From positions 592,911-656,910 of the forward strand of contig CP015028.1 of NCBI GenBank assembly GCA_011455275.1: a stretch of 64,000 bases of DNA. Direction: 5' to 3'. Both the position numbers and the translations under genes were made by a program. The DNA is from Pasteurellaceae bacterium Orientalotternb1 (lineage in GTDB: Bacteria; Pseudomonadota; Gammaproteobacteria; Enterobacterales; Pasteurellaceae). The notes below the pieces were generated by a model. The model was not told where the DNA came from and ran no database searches. It saw only the letters and a program-made list of their open reading frames with translations. Shown here one piece after another: positions 17,796-52,643 of this stretch (the first letter of the stretch is position 1; each line of letters opens with the position of its first letter).

Positions 17796-19112
<1,317 letters not shown>

Positions 19113-20534: not shown

Positions 20535-20551
20535 AAAATGGAGTGATTTTT

Positions 20552-21891: not shown

Positions 21892-21897
21892 AATATA

Positions 21898-22037: not shown

Positions 22038-22106
22038 GTATTCTTACAAGCGGTTATTTTCCCAATAAATTCCATTCCTACCAGCAGTAAACAAAAGGAA
22101 CATTCG

Positions 22107-23663: not shown

Positions 23664-23673
23664 TTAGATCATA

Positions 23674-23806
23674 ATTCTGCCCCCGCTTTGCGGAGAAGTA
23701 CCTTGCGAAGCAGGAGGCAGACAAGCGGTCAGATTAAAGTAAAATTTTACAAATGCCCCCTTCGGCTCGTTTCACTCGCCACTTCCCCCGCAAGCGGGGG
23801 CAGAAT
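23674..23806. repeat. MITE-like element family A copy 2 (malF|malG intergenic)
   Basis: ATTCTGCCCCCGCTTTGCGGAGAAGTACC ... GACAAGCGGTCAGATTAAAGTAAAATTTTACAAA ... CCACTTCCCCCGCAAGCGGGGGCAGAAT. Confidence 0.7.
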
Positions 23807-23826
23807 GAAATAAAAAGGATACTACT

Positions 23827-24716: not shown

Positions 24717-24724
24717 AAGAACAG

Positions 24725-24862
24725 ATTCTGCCCCCGCTTTGCGGGGGAAGTACCTTGCGAAGCAAGGGATTGGGGGAGCAAGCGGTCAGATTAAAGTAAA
24801 ATTTTACAAATGCCCCCTTCGGCTCGTTTCACTCGCCACCCCCCCGCAAGCGGGGGCAGAAT
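24725..24862. repeat. MITE-like element family A copy 3 (malG|malQ intergenic)
   Basis: Near-identical to copy 2, including the internal extended USS. Confidence 0.7.
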
Positions 24863-24901
24863 TAAACTATTTTGTATTAAATCATATAAAGAGCAGTAAC
24901 A

Positions 24902-26893
24902 ATGAACCAACAACACCCATTTATCAATCCCTACTTTATTGATGAACACGGCGAGAAAGTTCGCCCAGAGCCTGAAGTTTATGCCAAAATCGCAGAGCTA
25001 TTAGGTGAGCCGAAAGCAGTTGGCGTTTTACCGCCAGTAAAAGTCGCACAACAAGGCGAAGCGGTGGCGTTCACCTTGCCAAAAAACAGCACAAAAAGCT
25101 GGCAGCTTACCCTTGAAAAAGGTCAAGTTTTAACAGGGAAATGCAAAAAAGATCAGCTTACATTGCCATCGGATTTACCCCTTGGCTACCACCAACTCAA
25201 TTTTGACGGTGCGGTTTGCCGTGTGATTATCACCCCTGAAACCGCTTTCCAACCTGTTGAATTACAACAGAAAAAGAAATTATGGGGATCGATTTTACAG
25301 CTTTACACCCTACGTTCTGAGCAAAACTGGGGGATCGGTGATTTCGGTGATTTGCAACAATTCTTAGTTAAACTGGCGGAAAAAGGCGGTGATTTTGTTG
25401 GTTTAAACCCAATTCACTCCCTTTTTCCAGCTAATCCTGAAGGGGCAAGCCCGTATAGCCCGTCTTCTCGTTTATGGCAAAACATCATCTACATCAACGT
25501 GCCAGCTATTGACGCTTTCCGCCAAAGTGCTGAAGCAACAGCGTGGTTCTATTCCGATGCGATCCAGCAACAGCTAAAAGACGCTCGCCAAAAAGATTAT
25601 GTCGATTATTCGCAGGTGATGTGGCTGAAATTAGCGGGCTTACGCTTTGCTTATAAACAGTTCAAATTGCAAGATCAAACCGCTTTCGAGCAATTTATCG
25701 CCGAAAATGGCGAATCGCTCAAGGTGCAGGCGACTTTTGATGCCTTGCACGAATGGCTTTCTTCCCAATTTACTGATCAATATGGTTGGTCTTCGTGGGA
25801 AGCAAAATTCCAAGATTATCAGACCGCTTGTGTTGCTGAATTCCAAAATGATCAAGCAGAATTAGTTCGCTTCCATATGTGGCTACAATTTGTCGCACAG
25901 CAACAGCTCAAAACCTGTAATGAACTGGCGAAACAGCTACAAATGCCAATCGGTTTCTACCGCGATTTAGCCGTTGGCGTGGCAGATAACGGGGCAGAAA
26001 CTTGGGCGGACAAAGAGCTTTATGTGCTCGGGGCATCGGTGGGGGCACCGCCAGATATTTTGGCTCCACAAGGACAGAACTGGGGCTTGTCGCCAATGCA
26101 CCCTGAAGTGCTTGCTGAGCGTGGCTATCAGCCGTTTATCGACTTATTGCGTGCCAATATGAAAGATTGTGGGGCGTTGCGTATCGACCATATTCTTGGC
26201 TTTGCGAGAATGTGGTGGGTGCCAAAAGGCGACTCGGCGAAAAATGGTGTGTATGTGAAATATCCGTTGGAAGATTTGCTTTCGATCTTGGCATTAGAAA
26301 GCCAACGCCATCAATGTTTGATCATCGCCGAAGCTCTCGGAACCGTGCCAGATGGAATGTTGGAATCCCTTGAAAGCAAAGGCATTTTAGCCTACAACAT
26401 TTTCTATTTTGAGTATGAAGAGGGCGAAAGCAAACCGCTAGCGAACTACCCATACCAAGCGATGACCACCCTTAGCACCCACGATTTACCCACGGTGCAA
26501 GGCTACTGGAAAACCTACGATTTTGAGTTAGGGCAGCGTTTTGATGTCTATCCAAACCCTGAAGTGCTTGAACAGCTCTACAAAACTCGCCACGAAAACA
26601 AACTGAAAATTCGTGCAGCGGTGGAAGCGGTACAAGAACTGGAGCCAGATTATTATGGCATTACCCAAAACTTCAATCACCAGCTACAAAGCTATGTGGC
26701 AGACACCAACAGTGTGCTATTTGGTACACAACCAGAGGATTGGCTAAATATGTTGGAACCAGTGAATATCCCTGGCACTAGCACCGAATATCCAAACTGG
26801 CGACGTAAACTCAGCCGTACCGTCAGTGACATTTTTGCCGACGAATCGGTACAAAAATTGCTTGAAACAATTGAGCAAAAACGCAATCCGTAA
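24902..26893 (+). CDS. malQ: 4-alpha-glucanotransferase (amylomaltase)
   Basis: 663 aa, GH77 family, with conserved regions including IDHILGFARMWWVP. Confidence 0.9.
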   Translation: MNQQHPFINPYFIDEHGEKVRPEPEVYAKIAELLGEPKAVGVLPPVKVAQQGEAVAFTLPKNSTKSWQLTLEKGQVLTGKCKKDQLTLPSDLPLGYHQLNFDGAVCRVIITPETAFQPVELQQKKKLWGSILQLYTLRSEQNWGIGDFGDLQQFLVKLAEKGGDFVGLNPIHSLFPANPEGASPYSPSSRLWQNIIYINVPAIDAFRQSAEATAWFYSDAIQQQLKDARQKDYVDYSQVMWLKLAGLRFAYKQFKLQDQTAFEQFIAENGESLKVQATFDALHEWLSSQFTDQYGWSSWEAKFQDYQTACVAEFQNDQAELVRFHMWLQFVAQQQLKTCNELAKQLQMPIGFYRDLAVGVADNGAETWADKELYVLGASVGAPPDILAPQGQNWGLSPMHPEVLAERGYQPFIDLLRANMKDCGALRIDHILGFARMWWVPKGDSAKNGVYVKYPLEDLLSILALESQRHQCLIIAEALGTVPDGMLESLESKGILAYNIFYFEYEEGESKPLANYPYQAMTTLSTHDLPTVQGYWKTYDFELGQRFDVYPNPEVLEQLYKTRHENKLKIRAAVEAVQELEPDYYGITQNFNHQLQSYVADTNSVLFGTQPEDWLNMLEPVNIPGTSTEYPNWRRKLSRTVSDIFADESVQKLLETIEQKRNP

Positions 26894-35003: not shown

Positions 35004-37106
35004 ATGGCTCGTACAACTCCTATTGAGCGATATCGTAACATCGGTATCAGTGCTCACATCGACGCAGGTAAAACAACTACCTCTGAGCGTATCCTTTTCT
35101 ATACAGGTAAAAGCCATAAATTAGGCGAAGTGCACGATGGTGCAGCAACAATGGACTGGATGGAACAAGAGCAAGAGCGTGGTATCACAATTACTTCTGC
35201 GGCTACTACAGCATTCTGGTCTGGTATGTCAAAACAATACCCAGAACACCGTATCAACGTTATTGATACTCCAGGACACGTTGACTTTACTATCGAAGTA
35301 GAACGTTCAATGCGTGTTCTTGACGGTGCAGTAATGGTTTACTGTGCAGTAGGTGGTGTTCAACCACAATCTGAAACCGTATGGCGTCAAGCAAACAAAT
35401 ATGAAGTGCCACGTGTTGCATTCGTAAACAAAATGGACCGTACTGGTGCAAACTTCTTACGTGTTGTTGAACAAATCAAAACTCGTTTAGGCGGTAATGC
35501 GGTTGCATTGCAACTTCCAATTGGTTCAGAAGAGAGCTTTAAAGGTGTTGTTGACCTTATCAAAATGAAAGCGATCAACTGGAATGATGCTGACCAAGGT
35601 ATGACGTTCACTTATGAAGATATTCCAGCAGATATGTTAGACGCCTGTCAAGAACGTCGTGAAATGTTAGTTGAAGCAGCTGCTGAAGCATCTGAAGAGT
35701 TAATGGAAAAATTCTTCGCAGGCGAAGAATTAACAGAAGAAGAAATCAAATCTGCATTACGTCAACGTGTATTAGCAGGTGAAGTAATTCCTGTATGCTG
35801 TGGTTCAGCATTTAAAAACAAAGGTGTTCAAGCAATGCTTGATGCAGTAATTGATTATTTGCCAGCACCAACAGATATCCCTGCAATTAAAGGTATCAAC
35901 GAAGACGAAACAGAAGGTGAGCGTCACGCAAGTGATGATGAGCCGTTCTCTTCATTAGCATTTAAAATTGCAACTGATCCATTCGTAGGTAACTTAACCT
36001 TCTTCCGTGTGTACTCAGGTGTAATCAATTCAGGCGATACTGTATTGAACTCGGTGAAACAAAAACGTGAGCGTTTTGGTCGTATCGTACAGATGCACGC
36101 TAACAAACGTGAAGAGATCAAAGAAGTTCGTGCAGGCGACATTGCTGCAGCAATTGGCTTGAAAGATGTTGGTACTGGTGACACATTATGTGCACTTGAT
36201 GCACCAATCATCCTTGAGCGTATGGAATTCCCTGAACCAGTAATCTCTGTTGCGGTTGAGCCGAAAACTAAAGCTGACCAAGAGAAAATGGGCTTGGCAT
36301 TAGGTCGTTTAGCACAAGAAGACCCTTCATTCCGTGTTCACACTGATGAAGAATCTGGCGAGACCATCATCTCTGGTATGGGTGAGTTACACTTAGACAT
36401 CATCGTTGATCGTATGAAACGTGAGTTCAAAGTGGAAGCAAACATCGGTAAACCACAAGTATCTTACCGTGAAACTATCCGCACCACAGTTAAAGATGTT
36501 GAAGGTAAACACGCAAAACAATCTGGTGGTCGTGGTCAATACGGTCACGTTGTTATCGACTTATACCCATTAGACCCAGAAGGTCCTGGCTATGAGTTCG
36601 TAAACGAAATCAAAGGTGGTGTAATCCCTGGTGAATATATCCCTGCAGTTGACAAAGGTATCCAAGAACAACTTAAATCTGGTCCATTAGCGGGTTACCC
36701 AGTAGTAGATTTAGGTGTGCGTTTACACTTCGGTTCATACCACGATGTTGACTCATCTGAATTAGCGTTTAAACTTGCAGCGTCATTGGCATTTAAAGCG
36801 GCGTTCGCAAAAGCAAACCCAGTTCTACTTGAGCCAATTATGAAAGTTGAAGTAGAAACTCCACCAGATTACGTTGGTGACGTAATAGGCGATTTAAGCC
36901 GTCGTCGTGCTATGGTAAACGGTCAAGAAGCAAACGAATTTGTTGTTAAAATCAATGCAGAAGTTCCACTTTCAGAAATGTTTGGTTACGCAACAGATCT
37001 TCGTTCACAAACTCAAGGTCGTGCATCATATTCAATGGAACCGTTAAAATATGCTGAAGCACCTTCAAGTGTTGCAGCAGCTGTTATTGAAGCACGTAAA
37101 AAGTAA
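35004..37106 (+). CDS. fusA: Elongation factor G
   Basis: 700 aa with the GTPase G1-G5 motifs (AHIDAGKTT). Confidence 0.97.
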
Positions 37107-37157
37107 TTTGATTTAATCAATTTCCGTAGTGCATTTCGCACTACGGGGCTTACATAG

Positions 37158-38354
<1,197 letters not shown>

Positions 38355-38389
38355 TTAATCGCAGTTAATTACTTGAAAGCATAAAGAAA

Positions 38390-38416
38390 GGCGTATCGAA
38401 AGGTACGCCTTTTGGT
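38390..38416 (+). terminator. tufA rho-independent terminator (GGCGUAUC-GAAA-GGUACGCC + U-run)
   Basis: An 8-bp stem with a GNRA tetraloop, followed by ttttggttttg. The identical sequence recurs inverted at 39712..39740 after tufB. Confidence 0.6.
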
Positions 38417-38477
38417 TTTGGGCAGCCGCAAGCGGTCACTTTATGATAAAATTTTGCAAGTTGACATTTGCAAAATA

Positions 38478-39662
38478 TTACTGGGAACTGACCGCTTGTA
38501 GATTAAGCCTTTTTCTTGAATGAAGAAAGAATACCAATGCTACAGCACCACTTAAACAAGAAATCCCAAAGGCAAACAAAGAGAGTTTCTGAACCATAAA
38601 ATAGCCAATCAGGTACAACATTGGTAATGAAAAGAGAGAATCAAAAGCTGACATAATTGATTCAGATGTTGCTCTAGTTTCTTGCTTGATATTATCGTGG
38701 AAATTCGCACTGAAAAATATACTAAGTAACCCTACGCAAAAAACATGAGCCATAAGCAATAGCGATAGAATCCACATTGAGCTTGTAAATACTGGCATTA
38801 ATATCATTGCAGCGATGTTTATTAGCATCACCCTTACTCGCTGCTTTTCCGTAAATTTCATTACTCGAACAAATTTTCCTGCACTGAGCATTGCTATTTG
38901 TAACATTAAATACCCACATTCAATGCCATAAGGAAACTGTTTGAAAAGATGTTGCCAGAGTAAAAATGGTGCGAGTGCTGATGAAGCATAAAAGACACTC
39001 GCCCAGAAAAATGATTGACGGCTGAGCGTGGCAATCAGCGGCAAAATTGAATGAACTTGCAGCCTCTCTTTGCTTTCAAATAGATAATCTTTTCGATAAT
39101 AAAATAAGATCACTGCAGAGATGGTATAGGCAAGAGCGGAATAGATCCAAGGGTATTGGTTATTATGTTTGAACAAATAATAGGCACCCATTCCACCAAG
39201 AATAGCTCCAGCACTTCGATAGGTTACACTTAATGAAAAGAGTTTTTCGGTTGAACCTTTAAAGGAAGATTTCAACCCCACTAAAACGGCATTCGCTGCC
39301 CCTGAAATCAAAGAAAGTCCGATACCATAAGTGATCATTGAGCTTTCCAATCCATAAGAAAAGTTGGATAACAATAAGAGTCTTGAGCCGATAATTATCA
39401 GTAATCCTATTACAACCGCATTGATGGGCTTGATTTTATCTGTTAAAAAGCCCGTCGGGATTTCACAAATTAAGATGAACAAATTGAGCAGAATAAACAG
39501 AATGGAAATGGTCTGGAAATTCAATCCTTTATCTAAAAAGTACAAAACGTTCACCGCAGCATAAGCCCCATAGCCTATGGCGGAAAATAAAATGGTGTAG
39601 AGATAACGTTGGATCTGAATTGGCATAAAATTATTGCTTACTGTCTTTAAATAATTTTTCAT
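38478..39662 (-). CDS. Major-facilitator-superfamily-like permease, low-GC gene between the two tuf copies
   Basis: 394 aa, about 12 predicted TM segments, with an MFS-like loop motif (EIPTGFLTDKIKP). Codon usage is very AT-rich compared with its neighbours. The last 7 codons run through a USS. Confidence 0.6.
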   Translation of the reverse strand: MKNYLKTVSNNFMPIQIQRYLYTILFSAIGYGAYAAVNVLYFLDKGLNFQTISILFILLNLFILICEIPTGFLTDKIKPINAVVIGLLIIIGSRLLLLSNFSYGLESSMITYGIGLSLISGAANAVLVGLKSSFKGSTEKLFSLSVTYRSAGAILGGMGAYYLFKHNNQYPWIYSALAYTISAVILFYYRKDYLFESKERLQVHSILPLIATLSRQSFFWASVFYASSALAPFLLWQHLFKQFPYGIECGYLMLQIAMLSAGKFVRVMKFTEKQRVRVMLINIAAMILMPVFTSSMWILSLLLMAHVFCVGLLSIFFSANFHDNIKQETRATSESIMSAFDSLFSLPMLYLIGYFMVQKLSLFAFGISCLSGAVALVFFLHSRKRLNLQAVSSQ

Positions 39663-39775
39663 TTCTCAATTTGCAAAATTTTATCATAAAGTGACCGCTT
39701 GCTGTTGCCCAAAACAAAAAGGCGTACCTTTCGATACGCCTTTCTTTATGCTTTCAAGTAATTAACTGCGATTAA

Positions 39776-40987
<1,212 letters not shown>

Positions 40988-41080
40988 TTACGATGGTACG
41001 TTACCACATTAACCTAATGTAGAAATGAATACGATTGTTTCTGTATGTTTACTAAGGAAAAGATGAAGCTAGAAAGGAAG

Positions 41081-41156
41081 TGGTGCTGATAGGCGGATTT
41101 GAACCGCCGACCTCACCCTTACCAAGGGTGCGCTCTACCAACTGAGCTATATCAGC
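41081..41156 (-). tRNA. thrT: tRNA-Thr (anticodon GGU)
   Basis: The reverse complement folds as GCTGATATAGCTCAGTTGGTAGAGCGCACCCTTGGTAAGGGTGAGGTCGGCGGTTCAAATCCGCCTATCAGCACCA. Confidence 0.9.
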
Positions 41157-41159
41157 GTT

Positions 41160-41234
<75 letters not shown>

Positions 41235-41274
41235 TGTTCTAAATTCGTCTGTCCCATAGAATTCAATTAAGAGA

Positions 41275-41361
41275 TGGTGGAGGGAGAAGGATTCGAACCT
41301 TCGAAGGCTGAGCCAACAGATTTACAGTCTGCCCCCTTTGGCCGCTCGGGAATCCCTCCAC
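41275..41361 (-). tRNA. tyrU: tRNA-Tyr (anticodon GUA), long variable arm
   Basis: GTGGAGGGATTCCCGAGCGGCCAAAGGGGGCAGACTGTAAATCTGTTGGCTCAGCCTTCGAAGGTTCGAATCCTTCTCCCTCCACCA. Confidence 0.9.
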
Positions 41362-41392
41362 ATTAATTGAATGCTTGATTACTTTGGCGAGA

Positions 41393-41468
<76 letters not shown>

Positions 41469-41497
41469 GTTGCGTTGTCGTAAGCAAGTGATGCGCA

Positions 41498-41524
41498 TTA
41501 TAGGGTTTTCGAAAAACCTTGCAA
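41498..41524 (-). promoter_or_regulatory. Sigma70 promoter of thrU-tyrU-glyT-thrT-tufB operon (-35 TTGCAA, 16-bp spacer, -10 TATAAT, GC-rich discriminator GCGC, upstream A/T UP-like tract)
   Basis: Minus-strand reading: cTTGCAAggtttttcgaaaacccTATAATgcgcatcac, about 25 bp upstream of thrU. Confidence 0.5.
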
Positions 41525-41714
41525 GTGTTTTTTTCAAAAAATTTAAAAAATCCGTTTTTTCGACTGCAAAACAGTCAAAGTGATGATTTTTTACATATTT
41601 TTGGTTGTTTTTATTGGATTATCTGCCCTATTTAGTCATTTATATTGTATATTTTACACCACTCACTAAACACTATTTTACTTATTAAATGAAGTAAAGC
41701 CTGAGACAATCACA

Positions 41715-42665
41715 ATGTTTTCTACAGAAACGCCTAAAATTAGTCCATTTTTAACTTTTGACCGTCAGCAGTGGGCGGCACTTCGGAAGTCTGTTCCGTT
41801 AACATTGACGGAAAAAGATCTTAAACCTTTACTAAGTTTCAATGAAGATCTCTCTTTAGATGAAGTTAGGGCAATTTATTTACCCCTAGTTCGTTTAATT
41901 AATTACTACATTGATGAGAATATCAAACGTCAGCAGGTGCTTCATAAGTTTCTTGATGTTGAAGCACCGAAAGTGCCTTACATTATTAGTATTGCTGGGA
42001 GCGTTTCTGTTGGGAAGAGCACATCTGCACGGATTTTACAGGCACTATTATCTAGTTGGCCTGAAGAGCGTAAGGTGTCCTTAATTACCACTGACGGTTT
42101 TCTTTATCCTTTATCTGTTTTAGAAGAAAAAAATATTCTTAACCGAAAAGGTTTCCCTGAATCTTACGATATTCATCGTTTGATTCAGTTTGTGTCGGAC
42201 ATTAAATCAGGTAAACGATATGTTAAAGCCCCTATTTACTCACATTTGACCTATGACATCATTCCTGATCAATTTAACGAAGTTGATCAACCTGATATTG
42301 TTATTTTAGAAGGTCTAAATGTGCTGCAAAGTGGAATGAATTATCCCGCCAGCCCACATAATGTATTTTTGTCAGATTTTGTTGATTTTTCTGTGTACGT
42401 AGATGCGGAAGAAGAATTATTGCTGAAATGGTACATTAATCGTTTTCTCAAATTTCGCCGTAGTGCGTTTACTGATCCAAATTCTTACTTTCACCATTAT
42501 TCTAAGTTATCGGAGCAGGAAGCGATTGAAACAGCAACAAGAATTTGGAATGAAATCAATGGGTTGAATTTGCGTAAAAATATTCTGCCAAGTCGTGATC
42601 GTGCCAATTTGATTCTAGTAAAAGGCGAAGATCATGCAATCCAAACGATTAAATTGAGAAAATAG
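41715..42665 (+). CDS. coaA: Type I pantothenate kinase
   Basis: 316 aa with the P-loop [19 protein letters not shown]. Divergent from the thrU operon, as in E. coli. Confidence 0.9.
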
Positions 42666-43423: not shown

Positions 43424-43915
43424 TTACTCACTATCTAAATCTAAGAGTTCAGGAGAAAGAATAATGCCTGTTAGGTCGGCATAAATATAATCTTCTGGAA
43501 GGAAGCTTACACCACCGAAATTGACAGGCGTGTCAACTTCACCAATAGTGGTATCGTCTGCACCAACAGGGATTGGGGCAAGTGCCTGAATCCCAATATC
43601 TAAGGTTTCTAAAACATCTAACTGTCGCACGGCACCGTTTACAATGATGCCTTCCCAGCCATTATCCACAGCAAGCTGTGCTAAATCGGCATCAATCAAC
43701 GCACGACGCACAGCCCCACCTCCGTCGATAAGCAATACTCGTCCTTGACCTTCTTCTTCCAAAACTTCCGCAATGAGTCCGTTACTTTCAAAGCATTTCA
43801 CGGTGGTGATTTTGCCAAAAAAAGATGAGCACCCGCCGAAGCTCGAAAAAATTGGTTCGACGACATCGACTTGGTCGGAATAGAGATCACAGAGTTCAGA
43901 AGTATCAATACGCAT
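43424..43915 (-). CDS. rraA: Regulator of RNase E activity A (RraA/MenG family)
   Basis: 163 aa from [12 protein letters not shown]. The ORF-track start at 43975 is an upstream extension. Confidence 0.85.
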
Positions 43916-44040
43916 AATTGCTCCCAGTTTTGTTTTATTGGTGCGAAAGTATAACCCTTTGTGCGAAATTTGCAAAAAATTCCCTAAATCTGACCGCTTG
44001 TTGGGTACAAGATCAGATTAAAATAGGCAGCTTCAATTCG

Positions 44041-45147
44041 CTATTGGCAGATAATTTCACTTAGGGAAACTTTACGATTTTCATAGCGTGATCTCGTACA
44101 AGCATCGGCGGTGGCAATAGCGGCACGAGCGGCTTCGCCAGTTAGAAGCTTGATGAACTCTTCGCTTGGCTGCATTCCGTGCATAATGTCGTTAAGGTAC
44201 TTCATTTCTTTTTTCATTACTGAACTGAGCCACATCGGGGTGCGTTTGCCTGGTTTTCCGTATTGAATTGCACCGTCCATTTCTGTGCTGGTGTAAATAC
44301 GGGTGCGGTCGTCATCTTCTTCTTGGGTCTCGTGGATCAAGAAGTGACTGTCTTTGCCATCTACTCGTAACGTTCCTTTGCAGTGATACATATCTAATTT
44401 AATTGCACCTTTTTCTCCTTGAATAAGCACATAGTGTTCTCCCCAACGGAACGCAGATCCCCACTCGAGTACAGCAAAACGACCATCGTCATATTCCATA
44501 CTGACAAATAGCATATCGTCTTCATCGCCAAATTTTTCACTTTGGTGAGCGAGGTTGCCTGCCATCATCATGACATTTTGGGGCATTCCTCCCATGAGAA
44601 ACTGAACACAATCAAGCTCGTGAATGTGGTGATAGAGATGCCCACCTGATTTTTCACGGATTTTTTTCCAAGAAATGCTAGGTTGTTCATCTTCCCATCC
44701 GTTGCGTGCAGTATGGCAGTAGAGAATTTTCCCGATCACGCCTTGGTTAATCAGCTCTTTGGCATGGTGAACACCGTTAAAGAAGTTCATAATATGACCA
44801 GCCATAAAGGTAACACCGTTTTCTTCACAGGCTTTGACCATTTCATCACAATCTTGATAACTTAATGCGATAGGTTTTTCGCAGAAAACGTGTTTTTTAT
44901 GTTGCGCGGCAAGAATGACAGGCTCTTTGTGTAAGTAGTTTGGCGTAGCCACGATCACGCAATCTACCTGAGGACTACTTACCAGCTGTTCTAGGTTCTG
45001 TGCTGCAACGCAGTTTAGCTCTTGGGCAATGGTTTCACCATTTTCTGGATCATAAACCATTGTGACTTGGGCATTTTCATTTTCGTTCATAAAGCGGGCT
45101 AAATCTGCACCGAAATAGCCAACGCCCACCACACCATATTTCATCAT
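44041..45147 (-). CDS. Gfo/Idh/MocA-family NAD(P)-dependent oxidoreductase (canonical EKP motif)
   Basis: N-terminal Rossmann GVVGVGYFG, the EKP catalytic motif (HVFCEKPIALS), and a C-terminal alpha/beta domain. Last gene of the ABC transporter operon. Confidence 0.8.
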   Translation of the reverse strand: MMKYGVVGVGYFGADLARFMNENENAQVTMVYDPENGETIAQELNCVAAQNLEQLVSSPQVDCVIVATPNYLHKEPVILAAQHKKHVFCEKPIALSYQDCDEMVKACEENGVTFMAGHIMNFFNGVHHAKELINQGVIGKILYCHTARNGWEDEQPSISWKKIREKSGGHLYHHIHELDCVQFLMGGMPQNVMMMAGNLAHQSEKFGDEDDMLFVSMEYDDGRFAVLEWGSAFRWGEHYVLIQGEKGAIKLDMYHCKGTLRVDGKDSHFLIHETQEEDDDRTRIYTSTEMDGAIQYGKPGKRTPMWLSSVMKKEMKYLNDIMHGMQPSEEFIKLLTGEAARAAIATADACTRSRYENRKVSLSEIICQ

Positions 45148-45179
45148 TTGATGTCTCCTTACTTAAGTTGATATTGAAT

Positions 45180-46013
45180 TTATTTCACAGAGCCTTCAGA
45201 AAGCCCACTGGTAATTTTGTTTTGAATAAAGCAAAAGAATAGAACGGATGGGAGTACTACAAGTACTGATGCTGCCATCATATCGCCCCAGTCTAATATT
45301 TCAGCTCCATTGAGTGATCTTAGAGCCACAGCAACAGTCATTTTGCTCGTATCGTTTACTAAAATCAGTGCATATAAGAACTCATTCCACGCATTGATAA
45401 AGGTATAAATAGCAGTAGCGACAATGCCTGGAGCAACTAGTGGTAATACAATTTTGAAGAAGATCGTGAATTTGTTTGCCCCATCAATTTTGGCTGCTTC
45501 TTCAATTTCAATTGGCACGGTTTGGAAAAAGCCCACTAATAACCACACGGCATAAGGCACACTGAAGGATAAATAGACGATAATCAGACCGCTTGTGGTA
45601 TTGGTAAGTCCTACTTTTGCCATCGCAATCGAATAAGGAATTGCAAGCAAAATCGGTGGGAAAATGTAGGTGGTAACAAGTAATTTCGACATAATCGATC
45701 CCAATTTGGGGAAAAATCGAACAATGCCGTAAGCGGCCATGGCAGAGATGGTGATGGCGATGACGGTTGTGATTAGTGAAATGAATAAGCTATTTTTGAT
45801 ATTCACAATGAAGTTGAGATCATTGATGACGTGTTCAAAGTAATCTAATGTGAGTATTTTGGGCCAAAAACGAGTGGGTTCACTGGTAAGTTCGCCTTTT
45901 CCTTTCACTGATGAGATAAAAATCCATACTAAAGGGAACACTGCCACGATCGTCGTGATAATCAGGAAGACATGCGAAATAATGTCGCCCAAAAGTGTTG
46001 ATTTCTTTTTCAT
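45180..46013 (-). CDS. CUT1-family sugar ABC transporter permease (MalG-type)
   Basis: 277 aa, 6 TM segments, EAA loop (EEAAKIDGANKFTIFFKIVLPL). Confidence 0.85.
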   Translation of the reverse strand: MKKKSTLLGDIISHVFLIITTIVAVFPLVWIFISSVKGKGELTSEPTRFWPKILTLDYFEHVINDLNFIVNIKNSLFISLITTVIAITISAMAAYGIVRFFPKLGSIMSKLLVTTYIFPPILLAIPYSIAMAKVGLTNTTSGLIIVYLSFSVPYAVWLLVGFFQTVPIEIEEAAKIDGANKFTIFFKIVLPLVAPGIVATAIYTFINAWNEFLYALILVNDTSKMTVAVALRSLNGAEILDWGDMMAASVLVVLPSVLFFCFIQNKITSGLSEGSVK

Positions 46014-46014
46014 T

Positions 46015-46899
46015 TTATTTACTCTCCTTTTCCCAACGATTGATAATAGCGAAGTAGATAAAACAGATAGTCAGTAGGAAGATAAATAAAAGTACAGTTA
46101 CGGCAGATGAACGTCCTAATAGTTTACTTCCCCAGCCCATATCGTAAGCGTAGATTGGTAATGTCATAGTGGCATTTGCAGGACCGCCACCTGTAATTAA
46201 GTAGATAATATCGAAATTGTTGAAGACCCAAATGGTTCTTAGGACGACCAATAAACCAACAACTAATTTGATATGTGGCAAGGTGATATAGCGGAAAATT
46301 TGCCACGCACTTGCTCCGTCAATTTTTGCCGCTTCATATTGGTCGGCTGGAACGGTTTGTAGAGCAGAAAGCACATTGACCATAATCATAGGTGCCCCAA
46401 ACCAAATGTTAATAAAGACTAAGCAGATAAATGCCCAAGTGCGATCAGATAAGAAATTCGGTGCAATATCCATTAGACCTAATTCCACTAACATATTAGG
46501 TAAATAGCCATATACACCATTAAGAATCCATTGCCAAGAAAATGCGATAACGATAGTTGGGAATGCCCAAGGAATAATGAGTAAAATTTTATAGAGCCAT
46601 TTGAAACGTTTAACTCGATTTAACGCTAGAGCAAGAAAGAAGCCCATTAGTACTTGACCTACCAGCGAAAGCACAGTCCACTTCAATGAGTTAAAGAAGG
46701 ACATCCAGAAATTTGGATCAGCTAGTACAGCCTGATAATTAGCAAATCCAACAAAACTATAATTTGGCATTATCAGGTTTTTGTTGGTAAAGCTATAAAA
46801 AATACTGGATAAAAATGGATAGATAAAAAGCACAGAGACGACTAGCAATGCAGGTAATACAAATATCCATCTTGTATAGTTATGTTGTCGATAATACAT
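46015..46899 (-). CDS. CUT1-family sugar ABC transporter permease (MalF-type)
   Basis: 294 aa, EAA loop (YEAAKIDGASAWQIFRYITLPHI). Confidence 0.85.
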   Translation of the reverse strand: MYYRQHNYTRWIFVLPALLVVSVLFIYPFLSSIFYSFTNKNLIMPNYSFVGFANYQAVLADPNFWMSFFNSLKWTVLSLVGQVLMGFFLALALNRVKRFKWLYKILLIIPWAFPTIVIAFSWQWILNGVYGYLPNMLVELGLMDIAPNFLSDRTWAFICLVFINIWFGAPMIMVNVLSALQTVPADQYEAAKIDGASAWQIFRYITLPHIKLVVGLLVVLRTIWVFNNFDIIYLITGGGPANATMTLPIYAYDMGWGSKLLGRSSAVTVLLFIFLLTICFIYFAIINRWEKESK

Positions 46900-47017
46900 A
46901 AGGAAAACCCCTTACTTCATTATTTGTGGCTAATTTACTGAATTTTTGGCAAAAATCCCCTAATGCTTATTTCCATAAACATATTGAATAATAAGATTAG
47001 GGGAGACCCAGAGAAGT

Positions 47018-48370
47018 CTATTTTGCGGAGATGATATCGAGTAGGTTATTTAGTTCTTTTTCCGCTTTTTGTGCTGCTACCATTGGATCAGTTCCATTAA
47101 TCACAATATCTTGAAACATTTTTTCAATGATGTGCTGGTTAGTAATTACCCCTGCCTGAACATTTGGGCCGTGTTCATAGCCGATTGCGGTGCCTCGCTG
47201 AACCGCATCAGCAATGATGGTTTCTGCGTGTTTGAATTGTGTTACTAATGGATCATCTCTATAGGCACTCTCTTCAGAGATACCTTTGATTGCAGGTAAC
47301 ATTCCAACAGGAACAGCTTTTAAGAAAGTGATATAGCGATCTTTATCGTATAAGGTTTTCATAAATGCTTTTGCAACATCTGGGTGTTTTGAATTTTTCC
47401 ATACCACCATGGGTATATTCGAAGTTTCTAAAGCAGGGGTTGGATCATTTTCATTGATTTTGGGTACAGGATAAGCATCAATCATATCGAGGAGTTGAGG
47501 GGAGTTCGCTTTTACGCCACCAATTTGGAATCCTGAGTTAAAATCGAAGGCGGTTTTTCCTTGATAATAAAGTGTTGCTTGCTGCAGAACATTGTAGTTT
47601 ACGGAGTCTTTTGGTGACGTTTCTTTATACATCTTCACCCAATATTTGATTCCATCTTGCACTAGTGGACTAGTTAGATCAACCTTGAGATCTTTTGTTA
47701 GTAAACTGCCGCCACCACTACGAACATAAAGGTTTAAAAAGCGGGTAGCCATTAAATCATTACTGCCCATCGGCACCGACAATCCATATACGCCCTCTTT
47801 CGTGAGCATTTTTGCTGTCGTGTATAGTTCATCCCACGTTTTCGGTACAGGTAAGTTATGTTTCTGCAACAAATCTTTACGTACCCACATCACTTGAGCG
47901 TGTGAATACAATGGAATGGAATAATTCTTCCCTCCGACAGAACCTTCATTGATAGAAGCTTCAGCAAATTTGTCTCGTCCAATGCTATCGATCAGATCAT
48001 CTAGTGGCTGCAATGCACCAAAATTGATCATTTCCACAACGTGATTAGGAAGTGCGGTACTTAAGTCAGGCACATTGCCCGAAGAAAGCCCTGTAGTCCA
48101 TTTGGTATAGAAGTCATTCCAAGAAAAGGTTTCAATTTTAATTTTGACTTTTGGGTGCTTTTGCTCAAACTCTTGGGCCGCTTTTTGAATAACCTCTAAA
48201 CGCGGACCTTGTGTAAATGAATGCCAAAATGTGATGTTACCTACTAGCTCTTGCCCATCTTTTGGCATCGTGGTATTGACATTTTTATTGCTTTCTTCAT
48301 TACAGCCTGTCAACACGGAAGCACCTGTAATGATCGGCAATAACAAAGAAAAGAATTTTTTGAGTTTCAT
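47018..48370 (-). CDS. Extracellular solute-binding protein family 1 lipoprotein (sugar ABC substrate-binding)
   Basis: 450 aa with the lipoprotein signal MKLKKFFSLLLPIITGASVLTGC. Confidence 0.85.
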   Translation of the reverse strand: MKLKKFFSLLLPIITGASVLTGCNEESNKNVNTTMPKDGQELVGNITFWHSFTQGPRLEVIQKAAQEFEQKHPKVKIKIETFSWNDFYTKWTTGLSSGNVPDLSTALPNHVVEMINFGALQPLDDLIDSIGRDKFAEASINEGSVGGKNYSIPLYSHAQVMWVRKDLLQKHNLPVPKTWDELYTTAKMLTKEGVYGLSVPMGSNDLMATRFLNLYVRSGGGSLLTKDLKVDLTSPLVQDGIKYWVKMYKETSPKDSVNYNVLQQATLYYQGKTAFDFNSGFQIGGVKANSPQLLDMIDAYPVPKINENDPTPALETSNIPMVVWKNSKHPDVAKAFMKTLYDKDRYITFLKAVPVGMLPAIKGISEESAYRDDPLVTQFKHAETIIADAVQRGTAIGYEHGPNVQAGVITNQHIIEKMFQDIVINGTDPMVAAQKAEKELNNLLDIISAK

Positions 48371-48391
48371 AGCTTTCTCCTTGTATTTGTA

Positions 48392-49495
48392 TTAGAGAGT
48401 TAAAAGTGATTTTTCGGTTTTGGGATCAAAAAAATGGGCGTATTTCATATCGAATACGAGATCTAATGTTTGCCCCATTTTGATGTTTTGGCGCGAATGA
48501 ACAATCGCTTTTACTGCTTGACCATCAATATCGGTATGCAAAATATATTCTGCACCCAATAATTCAGCAACATTGATATGGGCTTTGATAATAGAATGTT
48601 GATAGATCCCCAATAACATGGGCTCATTTGAAATATTCTCTGGGCGAATACCTAGAATGATTTCTTTGTCATCGAACCCTTTTTCTTTTATGAGTGCATA
48701 GTGTGCTTCAGGAATTGCCAATGCGGTTTTGGATGTGACAAATTTTCCATTTTCGACTTTTCCGTTGATGAAATTCATCGTTGGTGCACCAATGAACCCT
48801 GCAACAAACAGATTATTTGGACGATTATAAATTTCTTTTGGGGTACCAATCTGTTGTACTACTCCTGCTTTCATCACTACGATGCGATCCGCCATTGTCA
48901 TCGCTTCAGTTTGATCATGGGTAACGTAAATGGTCGTCGCATTCAAATTTTTATGGATACGGATAATTTCTGCTCGCATATTGCCGCGCAATTTGGCATC
49001 AAGGTTAGAAAGTGGTTCGTCCATTAAGAAAACTTTTGGAGAGCGTACAATGGTGCGACCTAGGGCTACTCGTTGACGTTGTCCGCCTGATAAGGCTTTG
49101 GGTTTACGTTCCAATAATGTTTCTAATCCTAAAATGTTGGCAGCCTCACGCACTTTTTGATCAATTTTTTCTTGAGGAAATTTACGCAGTTTGAGTGCAA
49201 ATGCCATATTGTCGTACACTGTCATATGCGGATAAAGTGCATAAGATTGGAATACCATTGCGATATCCCGATCTTTGGCTTCAACATCATTAACTAGACG
49301 ATCATCAATATAAAATTCACCACTAGAAATATCTTCCAGTCCAGCGATCATTCGTAATAATGTTGATTTACCGCAGCCAGACGGACCAACTAGTGCAATA
49401 AATTCTTGATCTTCAACGTTGAGATTAAAATTTTTTACTGCTTCGAAGCCGTTGTCATAGCGTTTATTAATTTGATTCAGTGATAACGTTGCCAT
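48392..49495 (-). CDS. Sugar ABC transporter ATP-binding protein (MalK/UgpC-like with C-terminal TOBE domain)
   Basis: Walker [10 protein letters not shown] and signature LSGGQRQR. First gene of the operon. Confidence 0.9.
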   Translation of the reverse strand: MATLSLNQINKRYDNGFEAVKNFNLNVEDQEFIALVGPSGCGKSTLLRMIAGLEDISSGEFYIDDRLVNDVEAKDRDIAMVFQSYALYPHMTVYDNMAFALKLRKFPQEKIDQKVREAANILGLETLLERKPKALSGGQRQRVALGRTIVRSPKVFLMDEPLSNLDAKLRGNMRAEIIRIHKNLNATTIYVTHDQTEAMTMADRIVVMKAGVVQQIGTPKEIYNRPNNLFVAGFIGAPTMNFINGKVENGKFVTSKTALAIPEAHYALIKEKGFDDKEIILGIRPENISNEPMLLGIYQHSIIKAHINVAELLGAEYILHTDIDGQAVKAIVHSRQNIKMGQTLDLVFDMKYAHFFDPKTEKSLLTL

Positions 49496-49608
49496 AGATA
49501 TCCACCTTACAGTAATATATGTGAAGATTGTGCTAACTTTGTTCAGACATATGATGTCCTATATCTAATAAAAAATAAAGAGATCTAGATCACATAATTG
49601 AGAAATCT

Positions 49609-50301
49609 ATGGAAAAGTTGACTAAAAAAGCAGCATCACTTGCATTGCAAGAAAGAATTAAGCGGCTAATCATTGACAGAAAGATGAAGTCGGGAGATTT
49701 AATGCCTACGGAAAATGAGCTTATTGACCTATTTGGGGTTAGCCGTTCAAGCCTTCGTGAAGCAATAAAATCACTGGAAGCCCTAAATATTATAGAAATT
49801 CGCCATGGCATTGGGACTTTTGTGGGGACATCATCACTTACACCAATGATCAGTGGGTTGACCTTCTATGCCCAACTACGATTACAAGAAAATTTAAAAA
49901 GCATTCTTGATATTTTAGATATTCGGGAAATTCTGCAATACGGTTTTGCCTCATTGGCTTTAGAAAAAATTCAACAAGCTGAAGTTGATGAGTTGCAGCA
50001 GTTAGTGAAGGTGATAGAAGAGCAAGCTCAACAAGGGGAATTTTCTATCCAAGAAGAGCATCAAATCCATCTTCTTATTTATCACGCCATACAAAATCAT
50101 TTACTCACTCAATATCTCGACGCATTTTGGCAAATTTATCAACAAGTCAAAGACGATCTTCCTCCTCTGCAAGTGACACCTCAAGAGCAGGCAATCCAGT
50201 ACCGAGAATTGGTAGATGCTGTTGAAGCTCGAGATTTAGAGCGGCTCCAGCGTGCTATTTTGTACTATTTCCAAACCATCAGAAAAAGTTTAGTTCTCTA
50301 A
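49609..50301 (+). CDS. GntR-family transcriptional regulator (FadR/FCD subfamily)
   Basis: N-terminal winged HTH (LMPTENELIDLFGVSRSSLREAIKSLEALNIIEIRHGIGTFV) plus a C-terminal all-helical FCD domain. Confidence 0.8.
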   Translation: MEKLTKKAASLALQERIKRLIIDRKMKSGDLMPTENELIDLFGVSRSSLREAIKSLEALNIIEIRHGIGTFVGTSSLTPMISGLTFYAQLRLQENLKSILDILDIREILQYGFASLALEKIQQAEVDELQQLVKVIEEQAQQGEFSIQEEHQIHLLIYHAIQNHLLTQYLDAFWQIYQQVKDDLPPLQVTPQEQAIQYRELVDAVEARDLERLQRAILYYFQTIRKSLVL

Positions 50302-50317
50302 AATAAGGAAGATCACT

Positions 50318-51385
50318 ATGCAGAAAATCAACGTGGCTTTAATTGGTTGTGGTTTCTTCGGTCAGCAGCTCGCATTGGGTTTTACCAAAGCTGGGGCAAA
50401 TCTAGTTGGAGTCACAGATGTTTCTTCTCGCTTTTCCGAAGCACTTGCAGATAAGTTCAACACCAAAACCTATCCTGATATTGAACAACTACTCCATGAT
50501 ACGCAGCCAGATTTAGTATTGATCGCAACGCCAAACTATGCACATAAACTGCCCGCACTTTCCGCATTAAAACGGCAATGTCATATTTTCATTGAAACAC
50601 CATTTAGTATTCATCAAGCCGATTGTGAGGAAATTATTGCTGTAGCCGAGCGTTACGGTCAATCCGTCTTTGTTGGGCATTTACTTAGAACTTTACCAGG
50701 TTTAATTAAAGCGAAAGAATTGATTGAGCAAGGGACACTAGGCAAAATTACTGTCGCACGGGCGACTCGCCAGCGTTGGATTGACTCGTTTGAAGACAAA
50801 AATTGGTGGAAGAACGATGTAAATCTTACGGGAGGTAAGCTCTTTAATGAAATTCACGAATTGGATTTGCTCTGCTGGCTACTTGGCGAGATTAGCTCTG
50901 TGTACGCCCAATCGACAAACCGTTCTCACACTGATACGCCAGATAATCACGATATTATCCAGCTGTTATTGCAGTTCAAAAATGGTGTGTTTGCCTCTCT
51001 TGAAATGGGAACGGCTTATCGTTTACATGAATGGGGAATAACTATTCATGGTGAATGTGGGGCACTTGTCATCAATTTCTTCACATCGACAATGACGCTT
51101 ACACTGGCGGATGGCAGCCGAGAGCAGTTTAATCTTTATAATGAGTTTGAAGCGGATCTTTCCTTACGTGAAAGCGGAAAGGCAACGCAAAAATACAACC
51201 TGCCAGATAGTCTACCGCCGTTTTGGCTAAGCCGAGCAGTGGAAATTGAAGCGGAAATGGTGATACAGCATCTTAAACATCGTGAAATGCCCTGCATTCT
51301 CAGTGAAAAAATCAGTGATGCGGTGATTGTTGCAGCCGCAGCAAAAAAATCAATACAAAATAAACAACGTATTGAATTAGGGTGA
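50318..51385 (+). CDS. Gfo/Idh/MocA-family oxidoreductase paralog (ETP variant of EKP motif)
   Basis: Rossmann ALIGCGFFG. The EKP position reads HIFIETPFS (Lys replaced by Thr). Shares the IHELD motif with the 44041 paralog. Confidence 0.8.
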   Translation: MQKINVALIGCGFFGQQLALGFTKAGANLVGVTDVSSRFSEALADKFNTKTYPDIEQLLHDTQPDLVLIATPNYAHKLPALSALKRQCHIFIETPFSIHQADCEEIIAVAERYGQSVFVGHLLRTLPGLIKAKELIEQGTLGKITVARATRQRWIDSFEDKNWWKNDVNLTGGKLFNEIHELDLLCWLLGEISSVYAQSTNRSHTDTPDNHDIIQLLLQFKNGVFASLEMGTAYRLHEWGITIHGECGALVINFFTSTMTLTLADGSREQFNLYNEFEADLSLRESGKATQKYNLPDSLPPFWLSRAVEIEAEMVIQHLKHREMPCILSEKISDAVIVAAAAKKSIQNKQRIELG

Positions 51386-51398
51386 TTTGCAAAAAATC

Positions 51399-52643
51399 CT
51401 ACGGATCCGACAGCTTGTTGTGTTCTCGATGAATCCGCCACAGCATTCGGGCGTCGAGATTGGACGATGAAATCATCGTTAGGAATACGGCTGCACCGAA
51501 ATAGAACGCCGCATCACCCACGGAGAAGCTGATAATTTGCCCGCGTTCGACTAGCGACATCATCAGTGCGAGTACAAACAGATCTAACATCGACCAACGC
51601 CCGACAAAGTGGACGTAATGTAGCAATTTCATTTGCCAATGAATTGGGTGCTTCCAGCGATAATGAATGGCAAGTAGCAAGTACAAAATGATCGCCACTT
51701 TGCTGAATGGCACAGCAATACTGGCGATAAACACGATGGCTGCTACCGCATAGCTTCCCATAGAAAGAAACAGCAACACGCCGCTCATGAGTGAGTCGGC
51801 GGAAGTTGCCCCAGCAAATTCCGTAGTAGAAATCGGTAAAATATTGGCGGGGATCATCATCACCACACCTGCGATAAGCGTTGCCCAAACTCGTTGTAGC
51901 TTGATTTTGTCGGGAATGTCTAAATTGCTTTCGCAACGTGGGCAGCGATGGCGACCTTTGCCATCAATGATGCGTTCATCAAAAGTATATTCACACTCAG
52001 GGCAAAGTGTTGGATTGCTTGGGTGATCGGGAGCTAACGAATGATATTCAGGATAAAATTCGTTCCATAACCGTTTAGGATCGATTTTGATAAATAGCAG
52101 AATCGTCAAAATGGTGGTGAGCACAAAGGGAAGTAAATAAACATCAAACGATAGCGGGGCATAATCACGCACTTTAAATGCAGCAACCGCCAACGCAATT
52201 AAATAGACGTCTAACATCACCCATTGTTTGACTTTATTGAGAAAAATTAACGTATAGCGTGGGCGATGCTGAAGCCACTTCTGCCCCCAAATCGTGAGAA
52301 CCAACAACGCAAAGGAAAATGGCATCACCACAGAGCAAAGCAAAATCATAAAAGCGGTGTAGGGAAAGCCTTGTGTTGCCATTTTCCACACGCCGCCCCA
52401 AACCGAAGCGTGAATTTTTACGCCAAGCAAATCAATGTTCATCAATGGTAAGAACAAGGCAAACGGCAATAAAATCAGAATCGAAATTGCGATAATGGCA
52501 CAGCGACGTAAATTCCAACGATTACCGGGTTGAAGAATTTCGTCGCAGTTTGGGCAACAAGCGGTCTGATTCGGCAAATTTTTTGCAATGTCGACCACTG
52601 TGTCACATTCTAAACAGCGTTGGAGATAGCGTTGTTGTTTCAT
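51399..52643 (-). CDS. PqiA-family integral membrane protein (paraquat-inducible protein A-like), no adjacent pqiB
   Basis: 414 aa. Two tandem repeats, each with CxxC...CxxC zinc-ribbon-like motifs (CLECD...CPNCD; CPECE...CPRCE) followed by TM helices. Confidence 0.8.

Follow-up and report, generated by a model that had tools for sequence, protein, structure and literature searches.

Between rraA (43424-43975, minus strand) and pqiA (51399-52643, minus strand, with rnhB beyond it), contig CP015028.1 of Pasteurellaceae bacterium Orientalotternb1 carries a seven-gene island, which we describe here within the 64,000-nucleotide stretch of that contig that was analysed as a whole (the window), and which we read, with a probability of roughly 0.88, as a satellite module for the scavenging of anhydro-sialic acid. 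Its minus-strand operon runs from an ATPase gene (satW, 48392-49495, encoding a 367-residue MalK/UgpC-type protein with Pfam domains ABC_tran, OB_MalK and TOBE_2) through the gene of a solute-binding protein (SBP; satX, 47018-48370, a 450-residue lipoprotein with domain SBP_bac_1) and two permease genes, of satY type (46015-46899, 294 residues, MalF/UgpA-like) and satZ type (45180-46013, 277 residues, MalG/UgpE-like), both with domain BPD_transp_1, to the gene of a Gfo/Idh/MocA oxidoreductase with the motif CEKP (44041-45147, 368 residues), hereafter the EKP enzyme. Divergent from it on the plus strand lie the genes of a GntR/FCD-family transcription regulator (49609-50301, 230 residues, Pfam GntR and FCD) and of a second Gfo/Idh/MocA protein with the motif IETP (50318-51385, 355 residues), hereafter the ETP paralogue. 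All seven open reading frames are found at the coordinates and on the strands given in an earlier note that was made from the sequence alone, their Pfam domains agree with the gene anatomy it described, and its observation that the island genes include no hydrolase, kinase or isomerase is borne out. A search of the whole window with Rfam returned four tRNAs only, none of them in the island, and in a scan for promoter and terminator consensus sequences the matches were no commoner than in shuffled sequence; by Pfam annotation the rest of the window holds housekeeping genes and the mal regulon only.

The EKP enzyme and its transporter

Compared with all PDB sequences, the EKP enzyme has its best matches in 6Z3B/6Z3C (E = 3e-190) and in E. 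coli YjhC (6O15; E = 2.5e-172), with the next match at 1e-23. The first two structures are of RgNanOx, the 2,7-anhydro-N-acetylneuraminic acid (2,7-anhydro-Neu5Ac) oxidoreductase of Ruminococcus gnavus (PMC7535918), to which the EKP enzyme is 72.5% identical over 364 residues with zero gaps; its identity is 66% to E. coli NanY and 90% to NanOx of Haemophilus (now Canicola) haemoglobinophilus CCUG 3714 (L002), which according to the available text of Bell et al. 2020 (PMC7535918) was cloned, purified and found to be active on 2,7-anhydro-Neu5Ac. The same text reports that the RgNanOx variants K93A, K163A, H175A, H176A and H178A were all inactive (PMC7535918), and the five residues are kept in the EKP enzyme as K91, K161, H173, H174 and H176, respectively, the catalytic set of EKP plus HHxH (here HHIH) being recovered in the ungapped alignment. 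These identities exceed the thresholds used in the literature for NanOx orthologues, which are at least 49% to RgNanOx (Bell et al.) and at least 60% (Wu et al.), and the gene is linked to an anhydro-sialic acid transporter as the last gene of the satWXYZ operon. For the R. gnavus, E. coli and H. haemoglobinophilus orthologues a reversible conversion between 2,7-anhydro-Neu5Ac and Neu5Ac with bound nicotinamide adenine dinucleotide (NAD+) is known. We conclude that the product of 44041-45147 is a NanOx/NanY orthologue, an assignment as firm as sequence evidence allows, and the 'substrate unknown' of the earlier note gives way to it, the matches to NanOx and YjhC being of the order of E = 1e-190 and 1e-172.

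That note had likened the locus to an incomplete cyclitol or keto-sugar oxidation module (of an inositol or 3-keto-glycoside type, with which we also weighed a levoglucosan type) with its sugar unassigned. Both oxidoreductases do belong to Gfo/Idh/MocA, the transporter is of the CUT1 type, and weak matches to the models of IolG, LgdA and glycoside 3-dehydrogenase can be found; however, each such NCBIfam match is 3- to 20-fold under its curated cut-off, and the supposed likeness is not sustained by the scores of either protein. For IolG the EKP enzyme and the ETP paralogue reach 132 and 94 bits against a cut-off of 355, for levoglucosan dehydrogenase (LgdA) 73 and 79 bits against 650, and for glycoside 3-dehydrogenase (BT_2158/2159) 37 and 52 bits against 750, and all three assignments were rejected. 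Further against such a module are the identity of the EKP enzyme to RgNanOx with its special HHxH catalytic set, the presence of an orthologue of the SBP in streptococcal sialic-acid operons, and an orthologous cluster that holds a biochemically tested NanOx, and we consider it very improbable. A UDP-sugar dehydrogenase assignment was likewise rejected, with NCBIfam scores far under the cut-offs, and a NAD-dependent glycosidase of the Gfo/Idh/MocA fold (GH109-like or sulfoquinovosidase-like), considered as a hidden hydrolase, was dropped given the NanOx match.

The available text of Severi et al. 2021 (PMC8461474) describes the ST7 family (SatXYZ, formerly SAT2) as NanOx-linked ATP-binding cassette (ABC) importers of 2,7-anhydro-Neu5Ac, and singles out H. 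haemoglobinophilus as having recruited a dedicated ATPase gene, satW, into its cluster (PMC8461474; bioRxiv 10.1101/2021.03.01.433349, legend of Fig. S11). The island has the same linkage to NanOx/NanY, and its SBP, permeases and ATPase share 86-97% identity with the proteins of this named ST7 cluster (L002; 87% for satX, 97% and 96% for the satY- and satZ-type permeases). The ATPase-first gene order, which had been called atypical, is explained by the recruited satW of this cluster type and, as far as the available text goes, was already published for the orthologous H. haemoglobinophilus cluster. SatW scores 489 bits in the NCBIfam UgpC subfamily (cut-off 432) and is only 46% identical to the resident MalK (19254-20408), which argues that the island has not borrowed the resident ATPase. 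The maltose regulon of the window is itself complete (13852-26893), with malT, malM, lamB and malK divergent from malE, malF and then, after a gap, malQ.

Outside the Pasteurellaceae, the closest relatives of the SBP among the matches listed are mostly from Firmicutes, chiefly streptococci (59-72% identity). It is 70% identical to P0110 of S. mitis, the SBP of a nanB/SAT2 sialic operon that comprises an esterase, DUF386, the SBP, two permeases, a NanB-type sialidase, a Gfo/Idh/MocA protein, NanE, a second ABC system, NanA and a ROK kinase. This identity, together with the likeness of the operons, points to transfer between Firmicutes and Pasteurellaceae, and the lipobox sequences are consistent with such a transfer of transporter genes, reading by inspection LTGC here (N-terminus MKLKKFFSLLLPIITGASVLTGC), LVAC in the streptococcal orthologue, and LAGC or LNGC in other Pasteurellaceae. 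Among solved structures the SBP has distant CUT1 relatives only (best E = 8e-25). The SBP of R. gnavus is known from the literature to bind 2,7-anhydro-Neu5Ac and not Neu5Ac. By orthology the ABC system of the island is a SatWXYZ (ST7/SAT2) anhydro-sialic acid importer.

A stem-loop on the minus strand (TCCCCTAAT...ATTAGGGGA, 46956-47004) lies 13 nt past the satX stop codon, ahead of the permease genes, and is followed by UUUUU (46951-46955). The earlier note had proposed a hairpin in this intergenic region, and folding confirms it, with a free energy of -21.8 kcal/mol (z = -1.96; 4 of 200 shuffled sequences fold as well). A stable stem-loop is found at the same position in every locus with the ABC system (type A, below), where the stem sequences are unrelated (GGGCGGT/GCCGCCC; GGGTCGAGGC/GCTTCGACCC). 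That the structure is kept and the sequence is not supports a function for the hairpin, which is probably a partial terminator or an mRNA-stabilising element; differential stability or partial termination favouring the SBP over the permeases is the standard explanation in ABC operons.

With NanA, NanK, NanE, NanT and NanQ of E. coli as queries, tblastn found no homologue in the 64-kb window, nor any in about 75 Pasteurellaceae genomes at a distance of up to 10 kb from the module; since these searches picked up distant actinobacterial Nan homologues, their sensitivity seems adequate. The lack of a hydrolase or kinase and of Nan genes nearby suggests a satellite locus like nanXY of E. coli, so that what had been called an incomplete module would instead hand Neu5Ac to a pathway encoded elsewhere. 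E. coli nanXY (yjhBC) likewise consists of a 2,7-anhydro-Neu5Ac transporter and NanY only and feeds nanATEK at another locus, but its transporter belongs to the major facilitator superfamily (MFS), it is controlled by NanR from another locus, and it has neither a local regulator nor a second oxidoreductase. With the nan cluster of R. gnavus, on which the chemistry proposed below is modelled, the island shares the NanOx and its catalytic residues and a NanOx-linked CUT1-family transporter; according to the literature, however, that cluster has its own intramolecular trans-sialidase (IT-sialidase) and nanA/K/E and no dedicated ATPase, whereas the window locus is without sialidase and nanA/K/E and adds satW, the GntR/FCD regulator and the ETP paralogue. 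The nanB (SAT2) operon of S. pneumoniae and S. mitis has the related lipoprotein SBP, two permeases and a NanOx-type gene in common with the island, but differs in encoding the NanB sialidase, an esterase, DUF386/NanQ, NanE, NanA and a ROK kinase, and in having a single Gfo/Idh/MocA gene. The closest genomic relative of the whole locus is in NZ_MUXZ01000017 of Canicola haemoglobinophilus CCUG 3714 (L002), where all seven genes recur with order and orientation unchanged and encode proteins 79-97% identical, but at another chromosomal site, with no rraA, pqiA or rnhB within 10 kb. Orthologous islands of defined function do exist, which the earlier note had itself named as a finding that would speak against its view of the locus.

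The regulator and the NanOx-like paralogue

A pattern scan with one genome per species returned 79 loci, in which three architectures can be told apart. Architecture A, that of the window, is found in Canicola, Pasteurella canis, Bisgaardia, Gallibacterium, Avibacterium, Testudinibacter, Chelonobacter and Glaesserella. In architecture B (H. parainfluenzae, Aggregatibacter and Rodentibacter) nanX is divergent from gntR-ETP-nanOx, and an MFS transporter 50-54% identical to E. coli NanX replaces the ABC system, while in architecture C (Pasteurellaceae bacterium Macca, L016, and Lonepinella sp., L019) gntR-ETP faces a convergent nanOx, which in turn is divergent from nanX. The transporter is exchangeable among these loci; the linkage to NanOx is constant, as is the gntR-ETP pair, in which the regulator gene is always directly upstream of the ETP gene.

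In its architecture of a GntR helix-turn-helix followed by an FCD domain the regulator resembles E. coli NanR, whose subfamily is also its best NCBIfam match. With 82.5 bits against a cut-off of 260, and 22% identity to the E. coli protein, it is nevertheless not an orthologue of NanR by these sequence measures. NanR recognises GGTATA repeats; the candidate operator in the window is a 15-bp palindrome instead (AGACAT-ATG-ATGTCC, 49545-49559), found as AGAC(A/G)T-N3-ATGTCT by aligning the regions upstream of gntR. It occurs a single time in the window, midway between the two divergent start codons, and in one or two copies at the equivalent intergenic position of about 70 Pasteurellaceae loci, both ABC- and NanX-linked, with two occurrences only elsewhere in 1.49 Mb of fetched DNA. 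We regard the palindrome as a phylogenetic footprint for which the adjacent GntR/FCD protein is the obvious candidate binder. By inspection, and judged by the general CRP consensus, the same divergent promoter region holds a CRP-like site (AGAGA-TCTAGA-TCACA, 49579-49594), where loci of the NanX type have clearer sites (TGTGG-N6-TCACA). Anhydro-sialic acids do not relieve repression by E. coli NanR (Kentache et al.), which makes a dedicated regulator biologically sensible.

The second gene of this pair encodes a paralogue of the EKP enzyme, as the earlier note had recognised from the IHELD motif common to both: the two are 30% identical, and their alignment confirms that the conserved Lys is kept in one (EKP) and lost in the other (ETP). 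The best PDB sequence matches of the ETP paralogue are again RgNanOx and YjhC, at only E = 2e-39, with 28% identity to E. coli NanY and, in a structural alignment, 26% to RgNanOx. The five catalytic positions of NanOx are occupied in it by T94, K165, N177, E178 and H180, where T94 stands at the EKP Lys, N177 and E178 at the first two His of HHxH, and K165 and H180 are retained, so that 2/5 are kept. The earlier note had asked whether further catalytic residues might be missing, and in part they are, two more NanOx residues being gone beyond the Lys. By identity and catalytic set the ETP paralogue falls outside NanOx, and by fold, including the C-terminal helical region, it falls within: an AlphaFold2 model made with 29 homologues (predicted local distance difference test score 93) superposes on RgNanOx (6Z3C) with a template modelling (TM) score of 0.93 and a root-mean-square deviation of 2.0 Å, compared with TM scores of about 0.8 or lower and deviations of mostly 3-7 Å for other Gfo/Idh/MocA structures, of which the next-best family has a TM score of ~0.82 and deviations of more than 5 Å.

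Throughout the Pasteurellaceae ETP family the Lys is never present (the motif reads ETP, DTP or EVP); residue 177 is either N or H, residue 178 varies among E, L and Q, and no variation is seen in the Rossmann GxGxxG, D34, the ATPN segment, K165 or H180. When 1.84 billion cluster representatives were searched with a profile, all Pasteurellaceae members fell into one 50% cluster, with about 15 further 50% clusters of an 'EKP + H-E-x-H' type that are Ala/Arg-rich and probably actinobacterial, and with true NanOx-type (HHxH) clusters ranking lower. A single Pasteurellaceae cluster next to others that have EKP suggests that the Lys-to-Thr change arose within a small sister clade of NanOx, on its Pasteurellaceae branch. 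In 21 genomes of the H. parainfluenzae group the ratio of nonsynonymous to synonymous divergence is 0.025 for the ETP gene, 0.015 for NanOx and 0.018 for the regulator (synonymous divergence ~0.22), and the ETP paralogue is under strong purifying selection in this group. Four of its distant relatives (L078, L092, L093 and L094) all lie beside one or two further Gfo/Idh/MocA genes, three of them also beside ABC transporter genes. The one in Rhodococcus sp. IEGM 1379 (L078 2802-10350) is an EKP protein with tandem Gfo/Idh/MocA genes and then genes for NanA-like, ROK, NanE, GDSL esterase and amidohydrolase proteins, and a metagenomic contig with another has a dihydrodipicolinate synthase gene and an Opp-type ABC system. 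Judging by their gene content, clusters with two or three tandem Gfo/Idh/MocA genes may encode an undescribed multi-oxidoreductase sialic acid pathway.

For RgNanOx, the available text of PMC7535918 proposes that H176 handles the O7 proton and K93 or H175 the C3 proton, and reports that the K93A variant loses NAD+ binding and that the enzyme is a dimer. With the equivalents of K93, H175 and H176 lost, the full NanOx cycle by the NanOx mechanism should not be possible for the ETP paralogue, and its retained hydride-transfer His (H180) and NAD/carboxylate Lys (K165) would point to its simply oxidising or reducing a sialic-acid-like acid at C4, while loss of the NAD+-binding Lys would either make the cofactor exchangeable or abolish its binding. 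We tentatively favour, at somewhat less than even odds, a re-tooled enzyme and not a second NanOx. Our best guess at its activity, offered just as tentatively, is that of a simple dehydrogenase or ketoreductase whose substrate has a sialic-acid scaffold, whose cofactor is exchangeable and which works with the co-transcribed regulator.

Two other roles can be weighed against the same data. The constancy of the gntR-ETP pair in all three architectures, with gaps of 4-30 nt or an overlap while the positions of NanOx and transporter vary, would suit a non-catalytic partner, be it a Gal80-like co-regulator of the GntR protein or an inactive subunit dimerising with NanOx. The loss of 3/5 catalytic residues, including the very Lys whose mutation abolished NAD+ binding, a weak Pfam match to Gal80p_C-like (E = 5.6e-4) and the dimeric state of RgNanOx fit such a role as well, but the invariant residues listed above are more than a scaffold needs and the distant relatives keep EKP and look like enzymes, so that we hold a partner of this kind to be unlikely. 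The ETP paralogue might otherwise be a second anhydro-sialic acid isozyme whose specificity has shifted to Neu5Ac2en or to N-glycolyl or other modified anhydro-sialic acids, given that RgNanOx is its closest fold, that it is always linked to NanOx and anhydro-sialic acid transporters, and that two YjhC homologues, one near each sialidase type, have been reported for S. pneumoniae. Its identity to NanOx of only 26-30%, under the orthologue threshold of at least 49%, the loss of three residues each essential in RgNanOx and the poor conservation of position 178 within the Pasteurellaceae make this isozyme quite improbable. Our ranking thus leads from the re-tooled enzyme through a non-catalytic sensor or partner to the shifted isozyme, with the remainder left to something else. 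In the available text of Bell et al. 2020 and Severi et al. 2021 the second oxidoreductase, an operator for the regulator and the hairpin are not discussed, and in the accessible parts of the literature searched we found no discussion of the second (ETP) oxidoreductase.

The insertion site

An imperfect direct repeat of 46 nt (74% identity; copies spaced 7417 nt apart) lies exactly at both ends of the island and duplicates the 3' end of pqiA. Its right copy (51385-51430) overlaps the pqiA 3' end itself (codons NKLSDP and stop) and the stop codon of the ETP gene, and its left copy (43968-44013) overlaps the rraA promoter region and holds a relic of the pqiA 3' end as well as ACAAGCGGT. The earlier note had taken the locus for an accessory island, and uninterrupted rraA-pqiA junctions are indeed found in relatives. 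In L086/L087 (PqiA 96% identical) the order trmB-thrC-mgsA-ygfZ-rnhB-pqiA-rraA-methyltransferase-coaA agrees gene for gene with the window and the island is absent, the empty site (L086 6590-6720) having 69 nt between pqiA and rraA and flanking proteins that are 86-98% identical; in Ursidibacter maritimus, too, pqiA adjoins rraA and the island is absent. In a metagenomic relative (L090, PqiA 83% identical) the pqiA-rraA site is occupied by the island, and the junctions carry a perfect repeat of 20 nt, TTTGCTCAAATTTTTGCAAA (11198-11320, 18660-18850). The left copy of the window repeat is closer to the L086/L087 empty-site sequence than is the copy attached to pqiA. In Canicola and Glaesserella the module occupies other chromosomal sites. 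By its empty site, its boundary repeats and its lower G+C content (GC) the locus qualifies as a genomic island, inserted just downstream of pqiA, and Pfam annotation detected no integrase, transposase or other mobile-element genes in it. Its low GC, as had been claimed, holds in so far as 40.0% compares with 43.6% for the rest of the window, a value that places the island among the lowest 3% of windows of 7.4 kb, although the difference is modest.

The repeat could also be seen as two copies of an abundant uptake signal flanking an ancestral island that has been lost in relatives. It contains ACAAGCGGT, which we take to be the core of the Actinobacillus-type DNA-uptake signal and of which the window holds 30 copies where 0.44 would be expected (for instance at 43993-44001 in the left repeat, 45588-45596 and 52557-52565), and the identities to L090, 79-97% for island genes and 64-93% for flanking genes, would fit co-inheritance followed by deletion in the L086/L087 lineage. 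However, the similarity spans 46 nt, far past the 9-nt core, and falls exactly at both gene-free boundaries, the perfect junction repeat of L090 is without the core, the unrelated chromosomal sites of the module in other genera indicate that it has moved, and the GC of the island is under that of its flanks. We consider an ancestral island rather unlikely, though still a serious contender, and the divergences of island and flanks from L090 are similar, so that this comparison does not separate gain from loss. For the insertion that we prefer, natural transformation is a plausible entry route because ACAAGCGGT, presumed to be an uptake signal, lies within the repeat. Inside the 7.4-kb island it is present in one copy against ~3.5 expected from its density in the window, and AAGTGCGGT, presumably the Haemophilus-type core, occurs four times in the window, once in the SBP gene of the island (48050-48058).

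The flanking pqiA is the last gene of a ygfZ-rnhB-pqiA string in which rnhB and pqiA overlap by 4 nt, and it is without an adjacent pqiB or MCE gene both here and in island-free relatives (L086-L089), this clade apparently carrying a solitary gene of the PqiA/YebS family. The 'solo pqiA' of the earlier note is correct in that no MCE/pqiB gene was found near it in the window; the island is not the cause, since its pqiA also lacks pqiB and is followed by rraA in the island-free relatives, which argues that no pqiAB operon was split. Beyond rraA, outside the island, the coaA region (41500-42500) has the 1-kb GC minimum of this part of the window, 34.5%, and is conserved core sequence with 98% protein identity in L087. 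Further on, 35004-41470 holds fusA-tufA (plus strand), an MFS gene (38478-39662, minus strand), an inverted second tuf copy (39776-40981) and four tRNA genes (41084-41468, minus strand), the MFS gene being flanked by the inverted tuf duplicates.

Probable anhydro-sialic acid scavenging by the island

Taken as a satellite module, the island would begin its work outside the cell, where IT-sialidases of neighbouring bacteria would cut host sialoglycans and release 2,7-anhydro-Neu5Ac, to be bound, by orthology, by the SatX lipoprotein and imported through the permeases SatY and SatZ under the power of the dedicated ATPase SatW. In the cytoplasm NanOx/NanY with its bound NAD+ would oxidise C4, open the 2,7-anhydro bridge by way of a 4-keto-2,3-dehydro intermediate, and then rehydrate and reduce this intermediate back to yield Neu5Ac, which would enter NanA/K/E catabolism or surface sialylation through genes encoded elsewhere. 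The GntR/FCD protein probably represses both divergent operons through the palindrome, the CRP-like site would add catabolite control, and the hairpin 3' of satX probably shifts the balance of products towards binding protein over permease. The ETP paralogue could contribute a new sialic acid reaction, such as a net C4 oxidation or reduction with an exchangeable cofactor, or could be a ligand-sensing pseudo-enzyme that lets the dedicated repressor respond to anhydro-sialic acid.

Several observations weigh against this account or parts of it. NanOx enzymes also hydrate Neu5Ac2en (PMC7315737), so that 2,7-anhydro-Neu5Ac may not be the sole substrate; the ligand specificity of SatX is predicted from the orthologous systems of R. 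gnavus and streptococci; and the window does not contain the downstream Nan pathway. The operator and the CRP site are read from DNA sequence, and two loci, L016 and L019, have no palindrome upstream of gntR. The function proposed for the ETP paralogue is conjectural, and given the behaviour of RgNanOx K93A a protein with Thr in place of this Lys might bind no cofactor. In Glaesserella parasuis CP005384 its gene is frameshifted near residue 114-118 with the other six genes intact (L095 6942-7999), and in the type strain CCUG 3712 an insertion-element-like sequence truncates it at residue 118 (L079 5812-5994, 10001-10711), only a C-terminal NanOx fragment being left of the other island genes; the gene would thus be dispensable in at least some strains.

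Scavenging by satWXYZ-nanOx has already been described, and both the orthologous cluster and its enzyme are published. What appears to be undescribed is the pair of NanOx-like paralogue and regulator, the candidate operator, and the insertion site with its empty-site relative, together a modest lead, and it is possible, though we would not yet bet on it, that the gntR-ETP pair is an unrecognised component of bacterial anhydro-sialic acid metabolism. For the bacterium itself, associated with otters judging by its strain name, the island means that it can probably cross-feed on a form of sialic acid released by the IT-sialidases of other bacteria, which extends a known colonisation trait to another host-associated lineage and is the ordinary part of the finding. 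For the family, a NanOx-like protein that has lost most of its catalytic residues travels with NanOx in Pasteurella, Glaesserella, Gallibacterium, Avibacterium, Aggregatibacter and H. parainfluenzae, genera that include pathogens as well as commensals, and its role, once worked out, would provide either a new reaction of sialic acid or an explanation of how bacteria sense anhydro-sialic acid.

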